From sequence record KP064094: a stretch of DNA of 59,670 bases. One strand, given 5' to 3'. Below the pieces are notes generated by a model. It was given only the letters and a program-made list of their open reading frames with translations. It did not search any database and had not been told where the DNA came from. The position numbers were made by a program, and so were the translations under genes. The stretch comes from Escherichia phage CAjan. Positions 1-54,242 of this stretch are shown one piece after another. The first letter of the stretch is position 1. Every line of letters begins with the position of its first letter.

Positions 1-558
1 ATGAACGGGGCAAGTCAAGAGCAATATGATCGTGACTGGACGAATTACATCCAGTATGCAAATAGCTTGTCCGCTGAAGAGATGGCAATACGTGACAAAG
101 TTGTTGCTGAGTACATGTTCGACTACAATTGGACTAACGCTTGCATGAGATGCGGGTTCAATGCTATGTTTGCACAGGAGCTTGGCCAACGCTTTGCCAC
201 GGACTGTTATGTTCGATGGAAGCTCAAGGAGATTGAAAGATCCCGTGTTCAACGTACTTCTGAGCAAGCTAACATTGAAGCAGACCTTGAGCGTCAGCAT
301 ATCATTGAAGCATTAAAACGTGAAGCTCATTATACAGGACCGGGATCTTCTCAAGCTGCTAGAGTCGCCGCATTGGGCAAGCTTGCACAAATTTATGATT
401 TGGATGCTCCCAAGAAGGCTAAGATTGATGTTACTAACAGAGGCGGCGTAATGATAGTCCCTGCTGTAGCAAATATTGACGAATGGGAAAAAACTGCATC
501 CGAGTCTCAACAACGACTAGTTAAAGAGACTGAAGATGGAGCTAAACCGACAACCTGA
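1..558 (+). CDS. putative terminase small subunit
   Basis: 185-aa ORF beginning with ATG at window position 1, immediately upstream of and overlapping the large terminase gene; assigned by synteny only. Confidence 0.45.
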   Translation: MNGASQEQYDRDWTNYIQYANSLSAEEMAIRDKVVAEYMFDYNWTNACMRCGFNAMFAQELGQRFATDCYVRWKLKEIERSRVQRTSEQANIEADLERQHIIEALKREAHYTGPGSSQAARVAALGKLAQIYDLDAPKKAKIDVTNRGGVMIVPAVANIDEWEKTASESQQRLVKETEDGAKPTT

Positions 559-2095
559 TAACATGCCGCGAGTAGTCTGGAAACCACATCCAGGTTCACA
601 GACACTCGCTCTATCCTGCCCCGCTGATATTATCCTATACCACGGAACTCGCGGTCCTGGAAAAACGGACTGCCAGCTTATGCGTTTCCGTAAGAACGTT
701 GGCGTAGGGTACGGTAAATTTTGGAAGGGTATTATATTCGACCGTGAATATAAAAACCTTGATGACCTTGTAACTAAATCCCAGCGTTGGTTTCCTGAAT
801 TTAAAGACGGGGCTAAATTCCTTAGCTCTAAGTCTGATTATAAATGGGTTTGGCCTACAGGTGAAGAGCTACTGTTCCGCGTTGCTTGTAAAGAAAAGGA
901 TTACTGGTCTTATCACGGTCACGAATACCCATTTATCGGATGGAACGAATTAACAAAATATCCGGACGGGCGTTTGTTTGAAGCTATGATGTCCTGTAAC
1001 CGTTCATCTTTCTTACCAGAAGATAACCCAATTATTAATCCAGATGGTACGGTCACATATTTACCGGATATCCCTCTTGAAGTGTTTGCTACCAGTAACC
1101 CGTTTGGTGCGGGGCATAACTGGGTTAAGAAACGCTTCATTGACGCTGCACCGATGGGTAAAATACTCAGGAAGACTACGAGAGTGTTTAACCCGAGGAC
1201 GCAGAAAGACGAAGATGTGGTTACGACGCAATGCCATATCTTTGGTTCGTACCGTGAAAACAAAAACCTAAGTCCAAAATATATTGCAGAACTTATGTCT
1301 ATCACAGACCCGAACAAGCGTGCTGCATGGTTGGGCGGGAGCTGGGATATTACATCCGGTGGTATGTTCGATGACCTGTGGCGTAGCACTGTTCACAAAG
1401 TACGACCATTCCCGATTCCAGCGAGTTGGAAGATTACACGTTCTTTCGACTGGGGTTCTTCAAAACCGTTTTCTATCGGTTGGTGGGCTATTAGTGATGG
1501 TTCGGATGTTGTGCGTGAAGATGGCACTACATTCTCCACGGTCCGCGGTGACCTGTTTAGGATTAACGAATGGTATGGGACCAACGGTAAAACAAACGAA
1601 GGTCTACATTTGCTGGACTCAGAAATTGCAAGCGGTATACTGGAGCGGGAATTGGCCTGGGGTATACACGATCGTGTAGTTCCTGGTCCTGCGGATAACT
1701 CCATTTGGGATCTGGAGAACAATAACTCCACCGCTGCAACAATGGCGAAGAAAATTCGTCTTAACGGGAAGTTATACAACGGTATACATTGGAAGCGCAG
1801 TGATAAGTCTGCTGGGTCACGTAAACGAGGCTGGCAGAAAATGCGTGAGTTCCTTAAAGCTGCACTGCGGGAAGATGCGAACGGTAAACCTTTGCCCGGT
1901 CCGCGCGAGAATCCGGCAATGTACATTTTTGATAACTGCAACTATTTCTTTGAGCTGGTTCCAAGTCTACCTCGCGATGAAGTGGACCAGGACGACGTTG
2001 ATACGGAATGTGAAGACCATATGGGTGATGAAGTTCGTTATATGGTTCTGGATCAAGCTGTTTATACAGGTGTTGGCAAAACTATCGGTATTTAA
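536..2095 (+). CDS. terL: terminase large subunit
   Basis: 519 aa; N-terminal P-loop-like segment GTRGPGKTD and acidic C-terminal nuclease-like region; sits before the portal gene. Alternative ATG at 563. Confidence 0.8.
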   Translation: MELNRQPDNMPRVVWKPHPGSQTLALSCPADIILYHGTRGPGKTDCQLMRFRKNVGVGYGKFWKGIIFDREYKNLDDLVTKSQRWFPEFKDGAKFLSSKSDYKWVWPTGEELLFRVACKEKDYWSYHGHEYPFIGWNELTKYPDGRLFEAMMSCNRSSFLPEDNPIINPDGTVTYLPDIPLEVFATSNPFGAGHNWVKKRFIDAAPMGKILRKTTRVFNPRTQKDEDVVTTQCHIFGSYRENKNLSPKYIAELMSITDPNKRAAWLGGSWDITSGGMFDDLWRSTVHKVRPFPIPASWKITRSFDWGSSKPFSIGWWAISDGSDVVREDGTTFSTVRGDLFRINEWYGTNGKTNEGLHLLDSEIASGILERELAWGIHDRVVPGPADNSIWDLENNNSTAATMAKKIRLNGKLYNGIHWKRSDKSAGSRKRGWQKMREFLKAALREDANGKPLPGPRENPAMYIFDNCNYFFELVPSLPRDEVDQDDVDTECEDHMGDEVRYMVLDQAVYTGVGKTIGI

Positions 2096-2106
2096 CTGGA
2101 GGGTAT

Positions 2107-3603
2107 ATGGGTATTGATGCAACTCACCCGCTATATGATAAGTGGAAGGATGCATGGGTCAAGTGCAACGACTGCTATGAGGGTGAAGATAAAATTAAGG
2201 AAGAAGGTGTTAAATATCTACCGCCTTTAGCTTCCATGATTATTGATGGGATGAATAATCCTAATGATTTGGGCTTTCAACGTTGGCTCGCTTATCGTCT
2301 GCGTGCTAACTTCCCTGACGATTATTCAAGTGCGGTTACAAACAATTTAGGTCTGCTACACCAGAAGCCTCCTACAATTCAGCTTCCCCCTGAAATGGAA
2401 TACATGCGGGAGCTGTGTACTGCGGACGGTGAAGATATTATTGCTCTGCTACGTCGCATCAACGAAATGCAGTTAAAAAATGGACGTTTGGGGCTGCTGC
2501 TGGACTTGCCGAAAGGTGAGGATGTAAATAACAGACCTTATATTAGCGTTTATGATGCTTTATCCATTATCAACTGGGATGATGGTAAAGATGAATTGGG
2601 TAATATCAACTTGAACATGGTTGTTCTGGATGAAAGCGGCCCTGTACGTGTCAATCAGTTTGACTGGAAAGAAGAGAAGCGTTATCGCGTTCTACAATTA
2701 GGTCCAATGGACACAGATGAAGTTGCAGGTGGGGCGGTCTACTCCCAACATCTGTTTATTAACAATACCAATTATGATGAAGGGCAAATGATTGCTCCTT
2801 ATTATAAAGGTAATACGCTGGATGAAATACCTTTCCAGTTTGTCAATACAACAGATATTACCCCAGCACCGGAAGCGCCTCCATTGTTGGGTCTTGCTAA
2901 CATTTGTCTAAGCATGTACCGAAGTGACGCGGATTACCGCCAATGCTTGCATATGCAGGGTCAGGATACTTTAGTTGTTGTTGGTGGTTCCATGGAAAAT
3001 GGAGATAAATCCCCTCAACGCATCGGACCTGGCGCTGTCATTAACGTTGCTATTGGTGGTGACGCTAAATATGTAGGTCTTAGCGGTGACGGTTTGTCCG
3101 AGCAACGTCTCGCACTGGCAGCGGATAAGCAAGAAGCCCAAATTAAAGCCGGGCAAATGGTAAACAACACCAAGAGCACGCAGGAATCAGGCGAAGCTAT
3201 GAAAACGCGTATTGCTGCGCGTACAGCTAGTTTGATTCGAATTGCGTATACTGGTGCGGCTGGTTTGGAGAACTTGCTGAAGGTTTGCGCTAAGTGGATG
3301 GGTGCGGATCCCGAGAAGGTTGTGGTTAAGCCTAATCTTGAATTTACCAAGAGCATGTTTAACGGTCAGGACTTTGTTCAAATTATTACTGCACGCAACC
3401 TTAAGGCTCCGATTAGCTTGCAGTCTATTCATGGCTGGCTTGTTGATCAGGGCTTAACCACACTAAGCTTTGAAGAAGAAATGGCAATTCTTGAAGAAGA
3501 GCTTAAGAAGTGGCCACTGCCAGATGATGCTAAAGCTGATTTAAACGCAGAGCAGCAAGTAAGCAAAGATCCTAAGGAAGACAACGCTTCCGATAAAGAA
3601 TAG
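2107..3603 (+). CDS. portal protein
   Basis: 498 aa, strong SD (GGAGGG), directly downstream of terminase; size, acidic C-terminus and position typical of portal. Confidence 0.7.
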   Translation: MGIDATHPLYDKWKDAWVKCNDCYEGEDKIKEEGVKYLPPLASMIIDGMNNPNDLGFQRWLAYRLRANFPDDYSSAVTNNLGLLHQKPPTIQLPPEMEYMRELCTADGEDIIALLRRINEMQLKNGRLGLLLDLPKGEDVNNRPYISVYDALSIINWDDGKDELGNINLNMVVLDESGPVRVNQFDWKEEKRYRVLQLGPMDTDEVAGGAVYSQHLFINNTNYDEGQMIAPYYKGNTLDEIPFQFVNTTDITPAPEAPPLLGLANICLSMYRSDADYRQCLHMQGQDTLVVVGGSMENGDKSPQRIGPGAVINVAIGGDAKYVGLSGDGLSEQRLALAADKQEAQIKAGQMVNNTKSTQESGEAMKTRIAARTASLIRIAYTGAAGLENLLKVCAKWMGADPEKVVVKPNLEFTKSMFNGQDFVQIITARNLKAPISLQSIHGWLVDQGLTTLSFEEEMAILEEELKKWPLPDDAKADLNAEQQVSKDPKEDNASDKE

Positions 3604-3698
3604 TTGCAACTTCCAAGTTGATCGGTTTATATTAACGAACACGGGGCTGGGACGGCTCAGCTCCAAAAACGTCACACGGGTGACAACGGAGATAAGAA

Positions 3699-46543: not shown

Positions 46544-46567
46544 AAAGGGCCAAATGGCCCTTTATTT
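46544..46567. terminator. bidirectional terminator
   Basis: AAAGGGCC-AAAT-GGCCCTTTATTT between convergent genes 46315-46539 (+) and 46566-48908 (-). Confidence 0.6.
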
Positions 46568-48908
46568 ATTCCTCTTCTCCTAAGTTTGCCATAATACCTT
46601 CAACATCTTGCGTAATGCGCCAAGCCGCGCCAGTGAATCCCAGTTTGATAGTCTCCTCCCGTGTTACCGGAACAAGGGCACCCATAGCAACCATCTCTTT
46701 GATTGTAGACTCAATTGCTGCGGACAATCCGTGGTGATAGTTTTTAAACGCGGACTTACTTGCAAGACGAGTAGTAATATCACCCCGCGTGATAATACCT
46801 TCTTTACGCAGATCTACACGTTTAACTTTCACCCAATCTTTAGTTAGATAATTCACACAAACCTGGCACATAGTACGGATACGAGCTTCGTCATTAGTAC
46901 CGATACCCCCACTATGCCATTCCTTCATAATGATATCCTGTCCATGACGCACAAAGTCCAAGGCCCATTGAACATGATAGGTCTGCACAACCGGATTGAT
47001 CCAGTTTTCTCCCACAGCTAACAGGGCGGATAGACGTAACACCTTCAGGTGCGCACGGTTCCACGGCTGGCGGATTGCTTCGTCTTTGGTTGCGTTAATA
47101 TTACGGTCGCATTCGTCGTTAAACTGATCACATAATGCTTCCGCATCCGGGCTAAACTGCACTTCAATACTTTGATGCTTTGCCATTGCGACTAAGGTGT
47201 GGTTAACAAGATGACACACCATATCCCGCAAATGCTGATCCATTGTAGTCTGCTGGTTCTTGTTTAAAGGTGGTCGATCCCCTTCATAGCGGACAACATG
47301 GAAACGGGATAAGAAACCATCCTCCATCATTTCACGCGTCAACGCTTCAAAAAACGTGTCCGGTGTCGTTTCGCCCATGATGCTATAGGCCACACCTTGT
47401 TGAGCTTCCGTATTATTAGCCTTATCAGAATAAGACATACCACCAACAATAGACATCTGACCGGACTTTTGATAAATATCGGTAAGGTCATTCTTGAAGC
47501 TTTGCATTGGTGAACCTGCTGGCGCCGTTGCCATTGCTTTAATAATCTTACCAAACTCACCGTTCAAGTTGATAAAAGATTGTTTGTCCGCAAAAGATTT
47601 ACGCAGTGCGGAGCCGGAAGCGCATCGGTCAAAGGATACAAAGCTATGAATCTGCGGAAACGGTTCCTGAAGCTGGCTAACTATATTAGATAGCCCACTG
47701 TTCAACGTTTCTTTACCAACACCAGAACGAGCAATAAGGACGAAATATCCATTAAGACCCGATTGCGGAATCTGCCAGACCTTCCCGCATACCCCAGCCA
47801 TAAAGCCTAGCGCTGTCACAATAGAAATTTCTTTCACTGGTCGGACGGAGGCTTTATAGATGTATTTCGCAAGCTCCCCAGCAAGCCCCGGCGGCCAGTC
47901 AATAGCGGTTGCATCAATAGATGTACTTTCTGCAACTACTGTCTGCCCCTGTGTTGTTTCAACAGTTACGGGCATTTCCGCTACCTGCTGCATTGCACTG
48001 TGTGCCGCTTGCATACGGGCAGCATAATCCCGCGCCAGCGCCGCTACGTTTTCCTGGGCAATGCGCTCACGCTCCATGCGACCGCGACACATACGCAAGC
48101 AACGGTCAATATGAACATTGTTCTTATTAGCCTTCTCACGTTTGCCCAGCGCACTATAACGGAACAGACGGCGACATTGCTCATTACTTTCCGTGTAGAA
48201 TGCATACATAGAGATAAGGGCAAGGTCTGCTTCAGACTGGGAAGGGAATCCCATTTCAACCCATTCACCGTTAAATAACCGTGCATACTTATCGCCGTTA
48301 TCCGCTTCAAGTGCACGCTGATGAATAGTTGCATCATCTTCTACCGGATCTTTTTCTACCAGTTCAATTTCATATGTCTTGCGCTGAAGATCAATTTCAT
48401 TCACAAGCATAGTAAGGTAATGATCACGTTCTGCAACTGGTTTGTTGTAGACGGGATTGCCCGTGCAGATAATAAAACGCTCCTGACTATAAACCTCGAC
48501 ACCATCACGTCGACGACCTTTACCGATGTTACCTCTTAACCACAGGTGGACACCCAGGCCTGAGCGACTTACTTCGGTGTAAGTATCGAACGCAGTCATG
48601 ATCTGTTCGAAGCGGCGCAACTGCTCTGGCGTCGTGTGCTTCTTGGGATCAGGTTCATTGGTTGCGTTCTTCACATCCAGGTCGATGCAGGTGAACGGGT
48701 CTTGTGCAGTAAGCACGAATCCAATATAAGGTTTATTAAAATGAGCGGCGCAACCTTTGGCAGCTTCAAACGTCATAAGCATATCCGGATCGGTAACGTC
48801 CGCCGCCATCAAACGTCCAATATCGCTATCCCATACCAACGGCTTTTTATCCGCATCGGCCACCGCCCATTGTGGGAAAGCTTTAATTTCAGCGGGAAAC
48901 AGTTCCAT
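46566..48908 (-). CDS. primase-helicase (archaeo-eukaryotic primase-type domain fused to P-loop NTPase-like domain)
   Basis: 780 aa; N-terminal AEP-like motifs (CIDLDV, SGLGVHLW) and central P-loop-like SGVGKETLNSG. Confidence 0.6.
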   Translation of the reverse strand: MELFPAEIKAFPQWAVADADKKPLVWDSDIGRLMAADVTDPDMLMTFEAAKGCAAHFNKPYIGFVLTAQDPFTCIDLDVKNATNEPDPKKHTTPEQLRRFEQIMTAFDTYTEVSRSGLGVHLWLRGNIGKGRRRDGVEVYSQERFIICTGNPVYNKPVAERDHYLTMLVNEIDLQRKTYEIELVEKDPVEDDATIHQRALEADNGDKYARLFNGEWVEMGFPSQSEADLALISMYAFYTESNEQCRRLFRYSALGKREKANKNNVHIDRCLRMCRGRMERERIAQENVAALARDYAARMQAAHSAMQQVAEMPVTVETTQGQTVVAESTSIDATAIDWPPGLAGELAKYIYKASVRPVKEISIVTALGFMAGVCGKVWQIPQSGLNGYFVLIARSGVGKETLNSGLSNIVSQLQEPFPQIHSFVSFDRCASGSALRKSFADKQSFINLNGEFGKIIKAMATAPAGSPMQSFKNDLTDIYQKSGQMSIVGGMSYSDKANNTEAQQGVAYSIMGETTPDTFFEALTREMMEDGFLSRFHVVRYEGDRPPLNKNQQTTMDQHLRDMVCHLVNHTLVAMAKHQSIEVQFSPDAEALCDQFNDECDRNINATKDEAIRQPWNRAHLKVLRLSALLAVGENWINPVVQTYHVQWALDFVRHGQDIIMKEWHSGGIGTNDEARIRTMCQVCVNYLTKDWVKVKRVDLRKEGIITRGDITTRLASKSAFKNYHHGLSAAIESTIKEMVAMGALVPVTREETIKLGFTGAAWRITQDVEGIMANLGEEE

Positions 48909-48914
48909 ATTAAA

Positions 48915-49118
48915 TTAAGACCTCCGACGCTTATCGCCTTGCATTGCTATAAGTGCTGGCTCAGCAATTTCACGCACGTATACAAATACGTTAGCGATAC
49001 GAACAGCTCCAGGAAGTATATCTCGATTGCGGCACAACTTATAACGACTAACCCCGAAACGGGCTTCAATCTCTGATGTGGTTATATACTTAGCATCAAA
49101 CTCGTCTTGTGCAGTCAT
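48915..49118 (-). CDS. helix-turn-helix DNA-binding protein
   Basis: 67 aa, HTH-like ITTSEIEARFGVSRYKLCRNRD; strong SD AGGAGG. Confidence 0.5.
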   Translation of the reverse strand: MTAQDEFDAKYITTSEIEARFGVSRYKLCRNRDILPGAVRIANVFVYVREIAEPALIAMQGDKRRRS

Positions 49119-49967: not shown

Positions 49968-50260
49968 CTCCGATAGGGTATTGCCTTAACCCTATGGTAA
50001 GACCCTCCCTATTAAATTGCAAGAGTTATTGTAAAACAATAGGTATAGGGTGCAATACAGGGTTCATATAGGGTAACCCTATAAACACCCTATAAAATAC
50101 CCTCCCTATGCAGCTTTCTAAATTTATAGTTTTAGTTTACCCCTTGCGCCCCCGCAGAAAAACTAAAGATAGGGGTACTAGGGTAAACATTGGCAAATAC
50201 CCTATACCCTACTCCCTATACTATGATTCTAAAAAATTTGGTGTATACCCCTATAAACTT
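49968..50260. repeat. array of CCCTAT/ATAGGG repeats (iteron-like) followed by AT-rich tract to about 50420
   Basis: At least 12 copies of the CCCTAT(A) core in both orientations within about 300 bp, including palindrome ATAGGGTAACCCTAT and runs such as ACCCTATACCCTACTCCCTATAC. Confidence 0.6.
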
Positions 50261-50592
50261 ATAAACTTTCAGTCAACTAACTAAAATAAAACTAATTAAA
50301 CTAATATTAATAATAACTATAAATATATATAAAATAAGGATTTATTATTATTGTATATAGTACCTATTGGTATTATGTGATGAGTTTATAGTCACTAAAT
50401 AAACTCTATAAATTTTAATAAACCTGAACGGATGCAGATCAAAAATGAGAAGTCAAGTGCTTTTGAGGGAAATTTATTGAACTATTGTGATCGGAAGGTA
50501 TATCAAGCTATAATGCGCTTAATCGCGGGATATTGGAGGAGGACTTTATTGCGCGGTTAACCGGACCAGTAGGAGGGCTGGCCCGGAGTAGT

Positions 50593-50919
50593 TTAGAGCT
50601 GTACAGGTATAAAGTGGGCTAATGTGTCGTCGGACATAATACCCGACAATTTTTCGCTTACCCATTCGGACCAAATGCTATCCGGTTCCTGGCGATGCAC
50701 AAACCAGATTTCGGAAGTGCCTTCTTTGCGCATTGGTTGCACTTCTACGAGGAACTTGTCCTGCATAAGGCGGGTGAAGCAGACGCTGGTCATTGGAACC
50801 GGCTTTTCGTGTTTATTGTAATAAGGAGTCAGTAATTTATTTCCGAAGTTAGCAACTTCATAAACTGTTCCTTTGCGAAGACCTCTGATGTCTGTGTAAG
50901 AGCGGATAAATGTTTTCAT
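50593..50919 (-). CDS. hypothetical protein
   Basis: about 108 aa from ATG 50919 with SD AGGAG. Confidence 0.4.
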   Translation of the reverse strand: MKTFIRSYTDIRGLRKGTVYEVANFGNKLLTPYYNKHEKPVPMTSVCFTRLMQDKFLVEVQPMRKEGTSEIWFVHRQEPDSIWSEWVSEKLSGIMSDDTLAHFIPVQL

Positions 50920-50969
50920 GCTCACTCCTAGGGCTCCCGCAGAAGCCCGTTGGTTGATGTGGTTATAGA

Positions 50970-51452
50970 TTATGCGTCCAGACCGTGGTTGGCGTGAAAT
51001 TTGTAATGCTCTTCCGCTTGTTTACGGGCCTGTTTTGCGTCCTCTATAGTATCATATAAACCTAGATACTTTTTCAATCCGTTTATTTGAATGTAAGCCT
51101 GAAATTTACATGCCTTTTTATTAAAGTAAACTCCTGTTACTCCGGTAGAGTTATTTATTGCCCTGCTAAGATTTTTACTATTATCGCTTGGCAACACTAA
51201 GCGCAAATTCTCTATGCGGTCGTCCCATGTACAATGGTTAATATGGTCTATTTGATGTCCTTCCGGTATCGGGCCTTTATGCAACTCCCATACTAACCTT
51301 GAACGACGATATAGTTTTCCCTTGTATCCTATCAGGATGTATCCGCGCTTATTTGGTACACCAGCTTTACTACCGATAGAAATCTGTTTAGCTGGTTTTA
51401 TTTTCCAAAATAATTCTCCGTTTTGATAGCTGAAGATATTATTTAAGTCCAT
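50970..51452 (-). CDS. HNH homing endonuclease with AP2 DNA-binding domain
   Basis: 160 aa; HNH motif (HQIDHINHCTWDDRIENLRLV) and AP2-like segment (TGVTGVYFNKKACKFQAYIQINGLKKYLGLYDTIEDAKQARKQAEEHY). Confidence 0.7.
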   Translation of the reverse strand: MDLNNIFSYQNGELFWKIKPAKQISIGSKAGVPNKRGYILIGYKGKLYRRSRLVWELHKGPIPEGHQIDHINHCTWDDRIENLRLVLPSDNSKNLSRAINNSTGVTGVYFNKKACKFQAYIQINGLKKYLGLYDTIEDAKQARKQAEEHYKFHANHGLDA

Positions 51453-52050
51453 GATAAGTTCTCCAAGCGTAGAACTGAATGGCGACCGTTGTCCCGTTGT
51501 AAGAAGGCATTGCAGCTTTCATTTCTTTCAGCTCCGGCGTGCGGCCCAGTTCGGCTAAAAGTTTGTCGCCCATTGCCCACACTTCGGCGGTTTTTCCTTT
51601 CAGCGGCTTGCGAGCACCATTTTTGAAATCACAGCGAGCAGCTTTTGCATCCTGTTTTGGCGCGGCAGCTTTTGGCTCTTCAATTTTGATTTCAGAAACC
51701 TGCGTGGCAGCTTTTGCATGTTTCATATCTTTCTCTTCCTCCTGCTCCAGAGCTTCGAGGCAGCTTTTGACGATTTCCGGATTTACCATCGGGCGCAGTA
51801 CCGAGACGCTGGCAGCTGGCGCGGCGGTCGGTGCCGGTACTTTCTGCTCCGGCTGTTGCGCTTTTTTATGGTCGCGCAGTACCTGAAGCACTTCCTTCTC
51901 CACGATGTAAAAACCAATCTCATCCTGATGGATTAACTGCTCGTGTGCATCGCGTGCAACCTGGCCCCAACGGGTCTTCAGGGCGCGGCGTGCATTCGTT
52001 TTCATGGTGTAACGCATTTTGTCCTGTTCGCGGTGAGTTACTTTAGACAT
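51439..52050 (-). CDS. hypothetical protein
   Basis: about 203 aa from ATG 52050 with SD AAGGAG (track start 52095 is GTG). Confidence 0.4.
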   Translation of the reverse strand: MSKVTHREQDKMRYTMKTNARRALKTRWGQVARDAHEQLIHQDEIGFYIVEKEVLQVLRDHKKAQQPEQKVPAPTAAPAASVSVLRPMVNPEIVKSCLEALEQEEEKDMKHAKAATQVSEIKIEEPKAAAPKQDAKAARCDFKNGARKPLKGKTAEVWAMGDKLLAELGRTPELKEMKAAMPSYNGTTVAIQFYAWRTYHGLK

Positions 52051-52123
52051 GGTATAGCTCCTTTCGTTAATATTAGTTTGCTTATTACTGCCCACCGTAA
52101 TGATGAGCAGTGTATAAGAAAAC

Positions 52124-52372
52124 TTATTGCACGATTGCTACGAAATCGGCGGTTGCGATATCCATGCTTGCGAAAGCAACGATGCTATAGTCGGTGTCGT
52201 TCTCGGCGTTAAACGCTTTGAGGAACTGTTGCACCGCTGCTTTATGGTTAAGCGTTACGTCGATAGCATAGTCCCAGCTATAGACTTTGCGCTTGCCAAA
52301 ACCTTTAACTGCAATGCGTGAGCCTTTAGTGTTGGTTGGTGCCAAAAATTTGGTGACGATAGAAGTAGCCAT
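52124..52372 (-). CDS. hypothetical protein
   Basis: 82-aa ORF with SD GAGGA. Confidence 0.4.
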   Translation of the reverse strand: MATSIVTKFLAPTNTKGSRIAVKGFGKRKVYSWDYAIDVTLNHKAAVQQFLKAFNAENDTDYSIVAFASMDIATADFVAIVQ

Positions 52373-52440
52373 GATGTAATCCTCGTTTTGTTTAAGTTGA
52401 CTTATTATTGCCCGGTCCGATCAACTGGGCAAGATATAAA

Positions 52441-52653
52441 TCACTTAATTTGGACTAAATCGTATTCCTTGTAAATGTCGCTAATGTACATATCGAACTG
52501 ACCCATTAAGAAGATTTCGGCCTCCTCCCAACTTGGAGCAGATACATAACCAGCTATTTTACCGGACGCGAGTTCCACTAATTTGAATTCCATGATGCAA
52601 CCCTTAATGTGGTTAAGCAGTATTGCTTTGTTGAAGTAATAATAGCCTTGCAT
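52441..52653 (-). CDS. hypothetical protein
   Basis: 70-aa ORF, first minus-strand gene next to the divergent promoter region; weak SD. Confidence 0.3.
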   Translation of the reverse strand: MQGYYYFNKAILLNHIKGCIMEFKLVELASGKIAGYVSAPSWEEAEIFLMGQFDMYISDIYKEYDLVQIK

Positions 52654-52798
52654 CGTGATATTGAATAGGCCAAAAGTGCTATTTTAGAATTGTTTTGCAT
52701 CTAGTGAAAATTATGCTTGCCTTGCACGTTTAGCACTAATGGCCTAACTAACATCACATTATCTGGAGTATTCGCGCGGGCGCACACATACATATAAG

Positions 52799-52925
52799 GT
52801 GTGCCGGATCGACCAGGTGGGAGCGATGCGCCGAATTGACCAGGGGCACCGGATGCCCCTGCGTGTGCGGAGCCTACCAGGTGGGAGCAGCTCCCGCGTG
52901 TGCCGGAAATACCAGGGGCGCGCGA
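52799..52925. repeat. GC-rich degenerate direct repeats in divergent intergenic region
   Basis: Units GTGTGCCGGATCGACCAGGTGGGAGC, GTGTGCGGAGCCTACCAGGTGGGAGC, GTGTGCCGGAAATACCAGGGGCGC plus palindromes GGGGCACCGGATGCCCC and GGGAGCAGCTCCC. Confidence 0.55.
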
Positions 52926-52960
52926 GCCCATGCACTTTACAAAATATTTTTATAAAAAGT

Positions 52961-52989
52961 GCAAAAAGGTGTAGACACATGATCGGTCT
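52961..52989 (+). promoter_or_regulatory. sigma70-like promoter candidate for rightward small-gene block
   Basis: TAGACA - 17 bp - TACTAT about 60 bp upstream of the ATG at 53052; next to a TTTTTATAAAAA palindrome. Confidence 0.3.
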
Positions 52990-53051
52990 AGCACTACTAT
53001 ATACACATACCGCAAGGGTACTACAAATCAACTAATTTACGGGGGTACAAA

Positions 53052-53315
53052 ATGGTCCGCATCCTGGAACGTTATAAAAACGAAGCTACTGGCGCTATTG
53101 CATTCAAACGTATGTTAGTAAAACAAATCGACGGTTTATTCCGTGTTGTTAAAGAAGTCGATTACGGCAACGGCGCAGGAGTAACTACAACTATTGTCCC
53201 GGGCATTAAAGCGTATAAAACTTTAAAAGGTGCCGAGAAGGCCCTGGCAGCCTGGAAACCTGAACGCTATCAAATGACCCGTGTTGAATGGCTCATGCAG
53301 GAAGGTAAGATCTAA
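53052..53315 (+). CDS. hypothetical protein
   Basis: 87-aa ORF with SD GGGGG; first plus-strand gene after the divergent region. Confidence 0.45.
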   Translation: MVRILERYKNEATGAIAFKRMLVKQIDGLFRVVKEVDYGNGAGVTTTIVPGIKAYKTLKGAEKALAAWKPERYQMTRVEWLMQEGKI

Positions 53316-53383
53316 GTTTGTTTATACAATGGGCATTAATACAGTGCCCATTAATAAGCTAACTAATCATATCGAGGTATATT

Positions 53384-53668
53384 ATGTCCATCGTTACTAT
53401 GTCGTTCTTCGACCATTGCAATAACGAAAAACAAATTATCGTTAACCTGCAAAAAGGGTCTGTTGTTGCACGCAATGCTAAACGCCAATGCATCGCGCTA
53501 ACCGATTTTGCTTTCCGCCTTAACGTGGACAATACCACCGCCAAAAATATCGTTCACGATACAGCGTTGGAAGCTGCTCACGCAGCGAAGGATGAAGGTA
53601 TTCGCGCCGCACGTAAAATCATGCACAAAGCGCTCGGCATCACGTTCTTCGTTGGGATTAAGGGGTAA
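53384..53668 (+). CDS. hypothetical protein
   Basis: 94-aa ORF with SD GAGGT. Confidence 0.45.
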   Translation: MSIVTMSFFDHCNNEKQIIVNLQKGSVVARNAKRQCIALTDFAFRLNVDNTTAKNIVHDTALEAAHAAKDEGIRAARKIMHKALGITFFVGIKG

Positions 53669-53825
53669 CTACTATGTCACGCAAATACACGCTTACACGC
53701 GCACAGCACGCGTTATTAATTGCAGCAATGCGCGCAGAATATGCAGTTCATGGCTGGCATAGTGCTATGATGCGCGGTAAAAGCATATATGCGGACATGC
53801 GCTCGCAAGGATAACGCACACAGCG

Positions 53826-53920
53826 CCACTCTAGCGAGCTAATGTACATAGGTAATGGTAATGCATTAGCTCGGGCGAAACAGGCGCACAGCGTCGCGCA
53901 CAGCTCGCACAGCGCACACA
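53826..53920. repeat. inverted repeat and CGCACAG direct repeats in non-coding region
   Basis: GAGCTAATG...CATTAGCTC 9-bp inverted repeat flanking GGTAATG x2, followed by CGCACAG x4 and GACCC repeats. Confidence 0.5.
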
Positions 53921-54242
53921 GACCCACGCAGACCCAGCCGCGCGACCCGACCCATCCTTTTCCAGGTACTTGGATCGCTGGGGCGTGCCCTGTCCATCCT
54001 GATAGTAAGTCCTTGTCTAAATCTCACCTGTCACATTCCTATCCACCTACATCCATGACCACACCTACCTTCTTTTTGAATATATTGCGCTCATCCTTTC
54101 TAAATATATGGATTTGGTAGTAAATTCTGAGTCGTCAACGTATAATTCGTCTTGTAGCTGCTCCATAGCTACCATCTTTAAGCGGATGCAACCAATTTCT
54201 ATCAATTCACACCTGTTTTAGAGCATCAAGGAGGAGGTATTT

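Follow-up and report, generated by a model that had tools for sequence, protein, structure and literature searches.

Introduction

Iteron arrays, as in lambda ori and the origins of P1, F, pSC101 and RK2, are built from repeats of ~17-22 bp with a spacing of ~22-24 bp, which is roughly two helical turns in the classical case. The Cox boxes of phage P2 are 9 bp long and follow a phasing of ~10.5 bp, and the lambda CII sites (TTGC-N6-TTGC) straddle the -35 element. PeSL cassettes of T4-type phages occur in many dispersed copies per genome, with a promoter contained within the cassette. Untranslated repeat regions 1-3 and an 'injection stop signal' have been described in the left terminal repeat of T5 (Davison, bioRxiv 10.1101/866236). 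Terminal repeats were also reported for the Queuovirinae phage iggy, with 1,091 bp (PMC10484667), and for Wifcevirus phages, with ~3.7 kb (PMC6563267).

Queuovirinae are common restriction-resistant coliphages that feature in the BASEL collection and are considered for therapy. Their early regulation is uncharted. The window, which is the whole 59,670-nt stretch of DNA analysed here, was affiliated with the Seuratvirus coliphages (Queuovirinae) by BLAST of a 398-bp intergenic interval. Its Seuratvirus relatives are E. coli siphophages of ~59-60 kb with 7-deazaguanine DNA. The interval holds a GC-rich cassette with direct copies of one motif, which was also detected in the genus Nonagvirus and may be an array of protein-binding sites in the early control region. 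A literature search found no description of terminal repeats of Seuratvirus or Nonagvirus or of the motif. The features of the locus are collected in Table 1.

Table 1. Features of the intergenic locus, its motif units and the terminal repeats. Positions refer to the window unless another phage is named.
Feature	Position	Strand or orientation	Remarks
Non-coding spacer, 398 bp	52654-53051		Between leftward ORF 52441-52653 and rightward ORF 53052-53315
27-nt inverted repeat flanking P_L	52655-52757		Inverted-repeat search
16-bp box AGGCCAAAAGTGCTAT	52667-52682	inverted	Contained in the inverted repeat around P_L
Candidate leftward early promoter P_L	52681-52710	-	-35 TTTTCA or TTCACT; -10 TAAAAT at 52686-52681; consensus scan
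16-bp box TAGCACTAATGGCCTA	52731-52746		Contained in the inverted repeat around P_L
Alternating purine/pyrimidine tract, 17 bp, GCGCACACATACATATA	52780-52796		Left edge of the cassette; read from the sequence
GC-rich accessory cassette, 139 bp, four motif units	52797-52935	+	Composition; presence/absence/length polymorphism in relatives
Unit A GTGTGCCGGATCGACCAGG	52799-52817	+	Motif search, repeat families
Unit B ATGCGCCGAATTGACCAGG, 5' part degenerate	52826-52844	+	Motif search, repeat families
Hairpin CAGGGGCA-CCGGA-TGCCCCTG	52841-52861		Just after unit B
GC palindrome GGGGCA-CCGGA-TGCCCC	52843-52859		
Unit C GTGTGCGGAGCCTACCAGG	52863-52881	+	Followed by inverted-repeat arms 52878-52888 and 52890-52900
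GC palindrome GGGAGC-A-GCTCCC	52883-52895		
Unit D GTGTGCCGGAAATACCAGG	52898-52916	+	Followed by GGGC-GCGCGA-GCCC
CGCGCG/GCGCGC run	52918-52924		
AT-rich tract, UP-element position for P_R	52936-52966		Contains TTTTTATAAAAA
AT palindrome TTTTTATAAAAA	52947-52958		Within the AT-rich tract
Candidate rightward early promoter P_R	52972-53000	+	TAGACA-17-TACTAT; consensus scan; conserved in relatives
TAGCAC box	52989-52994		In the P_R spacer
Nonagvirus units GTGCCGGAAATACCAGGTA, GTGYYGAAMATACCAGGTA, GCMGRAMATACCAGGTA			Spacing 27 and 26 bp
Putative direct terminal repeat (DTR) of the window	~50,200-53,990		Boundaries approximate, mapped from relatives
Perfect direct terminal repeat of ECP2304, 3,695 bp	1-3695 = 59896-63590 (ECP2304)		100% identity
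Perfect direct terminal repeat of HdK1 (Nonagvirus), 3,367 bp			
Perfect direct terminal repeat of yong3, 3,424 bp			

Results and Discussion

Genomic setting and terminal repeats

The spacer separates the leftward from the rightward early genes, and the divergent intergenic placement given in a preliminary description was borne out. The leftward block runs from small genes to replication and modification genes, and the rightward block leads from small genes to lysis genes and on to structural genes. tRNA and tmRNA genes were not found in the window with ARAGORN. Ten neighbouring early proteins and eight proteins of the replication region gave nothing relevant in Pfam and PHROGs, with an HNH endonuclease as the sole assignable neighbour. 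The neighbouring early proteins showed no match in Pfam, to a PHROG function or in the PDB, where sequence searches were run on four candidates.

The first rightward gene (53,052-53,315) codes for 87 aa and belongs to phrog_27467. It showed ~82-83% nucleotide identity to a gene of the Wifcevirus myophages ECML-117 and FEC19, so that Wifcevirus phages share this gene with the window. The early gene looks like a recent exchange between unrelated phages.

Four related records hold the locus twice, and both ends were aligned for three of them (L141/L142, L143/L144 and L271/L272), all Queuovirinae with terminal repeats. The ends of the ECP2304 repeat map to window positions ~50,202 and ~53,991, and yong3 has the same right-hand point. 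Because three related records have the locus within terminal repeats, the spacer of the window probably sits in the middle of a DTR as well, as part of an early control region. A nearby packaging end had been hinted at before. The region would indeed lie inside a ~3.7-kb DTR, but with the left edge ~2.6 kb and the right edge 1.05-1.2 kb away.

In Nonagvirus, only ~225 bp separate the motif units from the repeat end to their right, which falls within an 85-bp block. This block (L005 1,400-1,530) is 100% identical in nine genomes, JenP2 and eight relatives, spans the right end of the HdK1 repeat, includes the hairpin GCCGCGGGGCGGC and is probably an end-forming or packaging signal. In the window, seven of the ten ACCCTAT copies of the genome are clustered at 49,973-50,205 in both orientations, followed by a 150-bp AT-rich block with short tandem repeats (49,973-50,420 overall). 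The left boundary of the putative DTR at ~50,200 falls inside this cluster, which is a candidate terminase or end-recognition site, or a candidate origin. The second GC-rich non-coding block of the genome, 53,851-54,013, contains four to five GCGCACAG-like units at 53,884-53,936 and ends at the right boundary of the putative DTR at ~53,990.

Composition and motif units of the cassette

The cassette is sharply delimited and had a GC content of 0.691 compared with 0.447 for the genome, which was the maximum among stretches of 139 bp (0.003% of them reach the value). The whole 398-bp interval showed a GC content of 0.48, and the AT-rich flanks of the cassette had values of 0.39 and 0.34. The preliminary description had placed the GC content of the region well above the average, which holds for the 139-bp core but not for the whole interval. 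It had also named three degenerate repeats of roughly 26 bp. The repeats are real, but there are four, and their start-to-start spacings of 27, 37 and 35 bp are not uniform. The two GC palindromes and the AT palindrome that it listed were all recovered. Promoter-like hexamers were present as well, but their number was not significantly above that in shuffled sequences (5 versus 2.8 +/- 1.8).

The four direct copies in the core share an asymmetric motif of ~20 bp with the consensus GTG-YCGRA-NNT-ACCAGG-K. A motif search of the whole genome with GTGCCGGANNNACCAGG, allowing up to three mismatches, matched 52801-52817, 52828-52844, 52865-52881 and 52900-52916. The remaining 59.5 kb yielded only two chance matches, each with three mismatches. 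The units were mutually ~60-76% identical over 21-34 nt with unequal periods, and Tandem Repeats Finder reported the first unit pair only, with a period of 27. The tract GCGCACACATACATATA at the left edge alternates perfectly and lies between the divergent promoters. It was kept in Seuratviruses with and without the cassette and would in principle be prone to form Z-DNA.

Variation among Seuratviruses

The insertion point of the cassette lies exactly between ...ACATATAAGG and AAAATATTTTTATAAAAAG. Four units were present in the window, CSP1, KS_A8, Dru_SM1 and a Logan contig, and three in Greed, whose cassette is 29 bp shorter. A diverged version with three units, ending in ...CCTGTAAGCTGGTCC, was found in SLUR25, and GottfriedDienst carried the SLUR25-type version with four. 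KS_W4, SeppeHuegi and ECP2304 held one unit each, giving a range of 1-4 copies where the cassette was present. At least 12 records and contigs had no unit, among them Skure, slur01, KS_S4 and yong3. Their empty sites read ...ATATAAAGCTGCCAAAATA, which looks like a clean deletion between TAAG... and ...TAAGCTGGTCC. In WildeMaa and L282, the cassette was replaced by an unrelated non-coding segment of ~650 bp. The WildeMaa segment (L138 1,190-1,775) showed a purine-rich leader, ~270 nt long, downstream of a TAGACA/TACTAT promoter. The WildeMaa-type leader had no Rfam match and no significant fold (z -0.9). The earlier suggestion of a recombination site holds only in a loose sense: indels and module replacements are concentrated at the locus, but nothing indicated site-specific recombination.

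In the genome, and across all phage records, the cassette was confined to this locus. BLAST searches with the window-type and SLUR25-type cassettes gave no match in 5,426 E. coli genomes, and the window-type cassette gave only two chance matches in plasmids, both in coding genes. A host-derived element was rejected on these results. A dispersed mobile element of the MITE, REP or ERIC-like kind was rejected given the single locus and the lack of a target duplication at the empty site. The motif was not found in phages outside Queuovirinae. Pattern scans of IMG/VR with one unit or with two gapped units returned nearly exclusively chance matches and one real Nonagvirus contig, and an IMG/VR scan with the flanking 82-aa protein recovered two loci only.

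The motif in Nonagvirus

The corresponding divergent intergenic region of Nonagvirus 9g, JenP2, HdK1 and relatives holds three direct units, oriented as in the window relative to the rightward genes. The spacers are unrelated and the intergenic DNA around the motif can no longer be aligned between the two genera. Unit D of the window is a near-exact match to the first Nonagvirus unit. Substitutions among eight aligned Nonagvirus genomes were located in the spacers and at degenerate motif positions, and the core ATACCAGGT was never changed. The repeated motif was thus conserved more than the intervening DNA across related genomes. An AT-rich block follows ~50-130 bp downstream of the Nonagvirus units. 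In JenP1, the whole left module was replaced and the units were missing.

In 32 distinct units from both genera, ACCAGG and G(+2) were invariant and A(+4) and the upstream GTG nearly so; the invariance of ACCAGG is partly built into the collection of units, for which two mismatches were allowed, none of which fell there. Unit spacings in both genera were 26-27 or 35-37 bp, and once 32 bp. About one turn of B-DNA separates the two classes, so that neighbouring sites keep their angular relation.

Promoters and operator-like boxes

P_L is a candidate leftward early promoter. Its -10 hexamer TAAAAT is conserved across the two genera, and its TATTTTAGAA segment was kept in Nonagvirus. On the rightward side, the AT-rich tract was conserved in every Seuratvirus that shares P_R, with or without the cassette. 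The corresponding Nonagvirus promoter-like site, TAGACA-18-GATAGT, begins 12 bp past the last unit. Between the last unit and the -35 hexamer of P_R lie ~56 bp in cassettes of the window type and ~76 bp in those of the SLUR25 type.

The 16-bp boxes are quasi-palindromic, TAGCAC-N4-GGCCTA, and flank or overlap P_L in the window. In the metagenomic relatives L283, L285 and L289, the TAGCAC-N4-GGCCTA box overlaps both divergent promoters. Where the window has the box upstream of the cassette, the minimal metagenomic relatives have it across the rightward promoter itself. This box was more universal than the GC-rich cassette. The boxes AGGCCAAAAGTGCTAT and TAGCACTAATGGCCTA are probably the operator pair of some early regulator. 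Promoter-like sites upstream of the array were detected in both genera. Nonagvirus has in addition a strong leftward promoter-like site, ATGACT-16-TATAAT, which would read the array antisense. Altogether, the regulatory hub proposed in the preliminary description is supported by the candidate divergent promoters, by the TAGCAC-N4-GGCCTA boxes, which resemble operators, and by a repeated motif that both genera retain.

The array as a putative set of protein-binding sites

The best, though tentative, explanation of the cassette, at somewhat less than even confidence, is a dispensable array of DNA-binding sites that would tune the rightward early promoter. The array would act as double-stranded DNA in a barely transcribed or untranscribed spacer. 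Each motif copy would be recognised by the same sequence-specific protein, which could be an early protein of the phage or a factor of the host, and the bound protein would tune the TAGACA-type P_R just downstream and possibly the whole divergent promoter pair. We infer protein binding, and an effect on transcription rather than on replication, from the following observations. Primary sequence and not structure was common to both genera, which argues for an array of protein sites. Spacing classes one helical turn apart are expected for DNA-bound proteins and have no obvious meaning for an RNA. Loss or replacement of the array in many relatives fits a set of modulatory sites. Furthermore, all units are direct, face the same way relative to the rightward genes and are located upstream of a TAGACA -35 site in both genera. 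Where the cassette was lost, the rightward promoter looked self-sufficient in sequence: Seuratvirus has an UP-like tract, and the promoter of JenP1 has an improved -10 hexamer (TATAGT). Further points in favour are the restriction of the motif to this locus and the lack of a significant fold in the Nonagvirus arrays.

Several results speak against binding sites. Searches of the candidates in Pfam, PHROGs and the PDB found no binding partner, and the distance between the last unit and P_R is not fixed (12, ~56 or ~76 bp). The plus strand folds better than shuffled sequences, and changes compatible with G-U pairing hint at a role as RNA or single strand. The promoter-like sites upstream indicate that the array may be transcribed. 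The only DNA-binding-like candidate noticed was a 67-aa Cox/AlpA-like ORF. It was 100% identical in a cassette-less relative, and nothing therefore co-varied with the cassette.

The 67-aa ORF (48,915-49,118, minus strand) is located immediately upstream of a 780-aa PrimPol-helicase (46,566-48,908, minus strand) with an NrS-1-type helix-bundle domain, and was annotated as a Cox-like regulatory protein in yong3. A small winged-helix-like protein paired with a primase-helicase recalls the replication modules of P4 and PICI.

A possible structured RNA

Possible but doubtful is a structured RNA, for which the cassette would be transcribed rightward from the operator-associated promoter as a multi-hairpin leader or small RNA. 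It could be an element that governs processing or stability, a sponge for a protein or a decoy against defence, with the motif as a single-stranded or apical recognition element. The plus strand of the cassette folded with a minimum free energy of -67.5 kcal/mol and z -2.3 (3 of 200 shuffles were as good), versus z +0.3 for the minus strand. Ten cassette variants ranged from z -0.7 to -2.5 on the plus strand and averaged ~-0.5 on the minus strand, and the plus strand was favoured in nine of the ten. These z-scores are modest for a sequence of 69% GC. Each long spacer has the potential for a hairpin whose first bases are the CAGG of the motif; the stem sequences differ. Transcription could start from promoter-like sites 25-100 nt upstream in both genera, and in the minimal relatives the O_M-associated site serves as the rightward promoter; however, the upstream plus-strand promoter at 52661-52690 loses the -10 T in Nonagvirus (TAGAAC).

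In four short cassettes, 2 of 27 predicted pairs were compensatory and several one-sided changes were compatible with G-U pairing, whereas none of 43 pairs was compensatory in the window-type alignment of five sequences, and a change in CSP1 breaks a pair in hairpin C. In Nonagvirus, the arrays lacked hairpins, and neither strand folded significantly (z -1.4 and -0.8). No Rfam match overlapping the cassette was obtained for the window at E<=10, nor for six relatives at E<=1, an intrinsic terminator was not found after the cassette, and the difference of ~10 bp between the spacing classes has no RNA rationale. Of the structured RNA in the preliminary description, there remains a plus strand that folds ~2 sd better than shuffles in some variants, without an Rfam family, with almost no covariation and with a counterpart in Nonagvirus that has no hairpins.

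A possible replication origin

An iteron-type origin is unlikely. A phage initiator, for instance the PrimPol-helicase or a small partner, would assemble on the direct repeats and the AT-rich tract would unwind, with activation helped by divergent transcription. Three to four direct asymmetric sites of ~20 bp are indeed located next to an AT-rich tract in both genera, and the phage encodes its own replisome including the 780-aa PrimPol-helicase. Every unit starts with GTG, the template motif recognised by the NrS-1 PrimPol (PMC8718748), although GTG is too short to be diagnostic. Against an origin, the array is entirely missing from JenP1 and from at least 12 Seuratviruses, which nevertheless keep the replication genes. 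The protein next to the PrimPol is identical in a cassette-less phage, and a Rep-like protein was not found. The units are 2.5 or 3.5 helical turns apart, unlike classical iterons, and the ACCCTAT cluster, with seven copies and its 150-bp AT-rich block, looks better as an origin-like or end-associated cluster.

Possible sequence junction or host decoy

It is rather improbable that the cassette has no present function. It would then be a fast-evolving junction, a remnant of recombination or slippage where modules are often exchanged, with copies homogenised by gene conversion. Cassette length and copy number were extremely polymorphic, clean deletions between short repeats were detected (Skure type: TAAG...TAAGCTG), unit A resembles a duplicated left half of unit C, and the whole module was replaced in WildeMaa, L282 and JenP1. 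However, a 15-20-bp motif in three to four copies survives in two genera whose surroundings cannot be aligned, and the motif cores do not vary although the spacers drift. Gene conversion leaves this conservation between genera unexplained.

An accessory counter-defence or entry-control element in the terminal repeat is highly improbable. The motif, as first-entering DNA or as early RNA, would titrate a host factor, such as a defence sensor or a nuclease, or act as a decoy for it. Such a decoy would explain the optional presence, the fast evolution of copy number and the location among the first-acting DNA and genes.

A small protein encoded in the interval is effectively refuted by the comparative data: ORFs of 30-57 aa were called in the KS_A8 and Dru_SM1 annotations as Pharokka-type hypothetical proteins and both strands allow ORFs of 76-90 aa, but the products are Arg/Gly/Pro-rich and of low complexity, ribosome-binding sites are missing, and the 29-bp deletion in Greed, the 1-bp indels in the CSP1 group, the absence in the Skure group and the replacement elsewhere conserve no frame, in support of the earlier statement that a credible ORF is lacking.

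Known binding sites and repeat types

Several known elements were compared with the units and rejected. A ToxI-like or CRISPR-repeat mimic did not fit the identities and unequal periods of the units or the absence of matches in the E. coli genomes, and the units did not resemble the I-E, I-F and ToxI repeats. In sigma-54 promoters, the GG and GC elements are exactly 10 bp apart (TGGCAC-N5-TTGC). The similar minus-strand pattern CTGG-N-..-GGCA was two bases short of this distance in every unit. Sites for sigma-28, CRP, LexA and NtrC, compared by eye with consensus sequences, failed in spacing or in the most conserved bases. For a CsrA sponge, also judged by eye, the GGA count was near the expectation from composition, and GGA was not conserved in Nonagvirus. 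A G-quadruplex was rejected as the G-tracts are missing in Nonagvirus. DnaA boxes were absent from 50,200-53,990, and the eight matches in the genome equal the eight expected by chance. An injection-stop region of the T5 type was rejected, as the terminal repeat has no DnaA box and the element is optional among relatives. Two-step DNA transfer is not known to occur in Queuovirinae.

Significance and comparison with known systems

The analysis sets the early control region of Queuovirinae inside a terminal repeat of 3.4-3.7 kb. Within it, a promoter pair, a probable operator box and a lineage-variable motif array common to two genera were defined. Should the array prove to bind a regulator or an initiator, it would offer a handle on the timing of early transcription or on the start of replication, and natural variants with and without the cassette make the comparison easy. 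If the cassette does nothing measurable, it would be an example of the rapid turnover of non-coding DNA at module junctions.

The cassette resembles iteron arrays in its direct asymmetric repeats (three to five of ~17-22 bp in iterons) beside an AT-rich tract, in a copy number that varies between relatives and in the expected binding of a sequence-specific protein. It differs in its spacing of 26-27 or 35-37 bp versus ~22-24 bp, in its position between divergent early promoters and not in or beside an initiator gene, and in being dispensable in many close relatives. The T5 regions are likewise non-coding direct and inverted repeats with palindromes in a long terminal repeat that holds the first-expressed genes, and were proposed to be protein-binding DNA, as is the cassette here. 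They comprise 0.2-1.2 kb, are highly conserved in all T5-like phages and are based on DnaA boxes, whereas the cassette has 139 bp and is optional.

The P2 Cox boxes and lambda CII sites share with the cassette the arrangement of several head-to-tail modulator sites between divergent or facing early promoters. The sites of the cassette are longer, at ~20 bp, neighbours are separated by 2.5-3.5 helical turns, and the P_R start follows 70-210 bp downstream. Like PeSL cassettes, the element is a short non-coding stem-loop cassette at an early-gene boundary and a point of modular shuffling, but it is present at a single locus and upstream of its promoter. Altogether, the cassette is a real, previously undescribed but conventional cis-element of a phage early control region.
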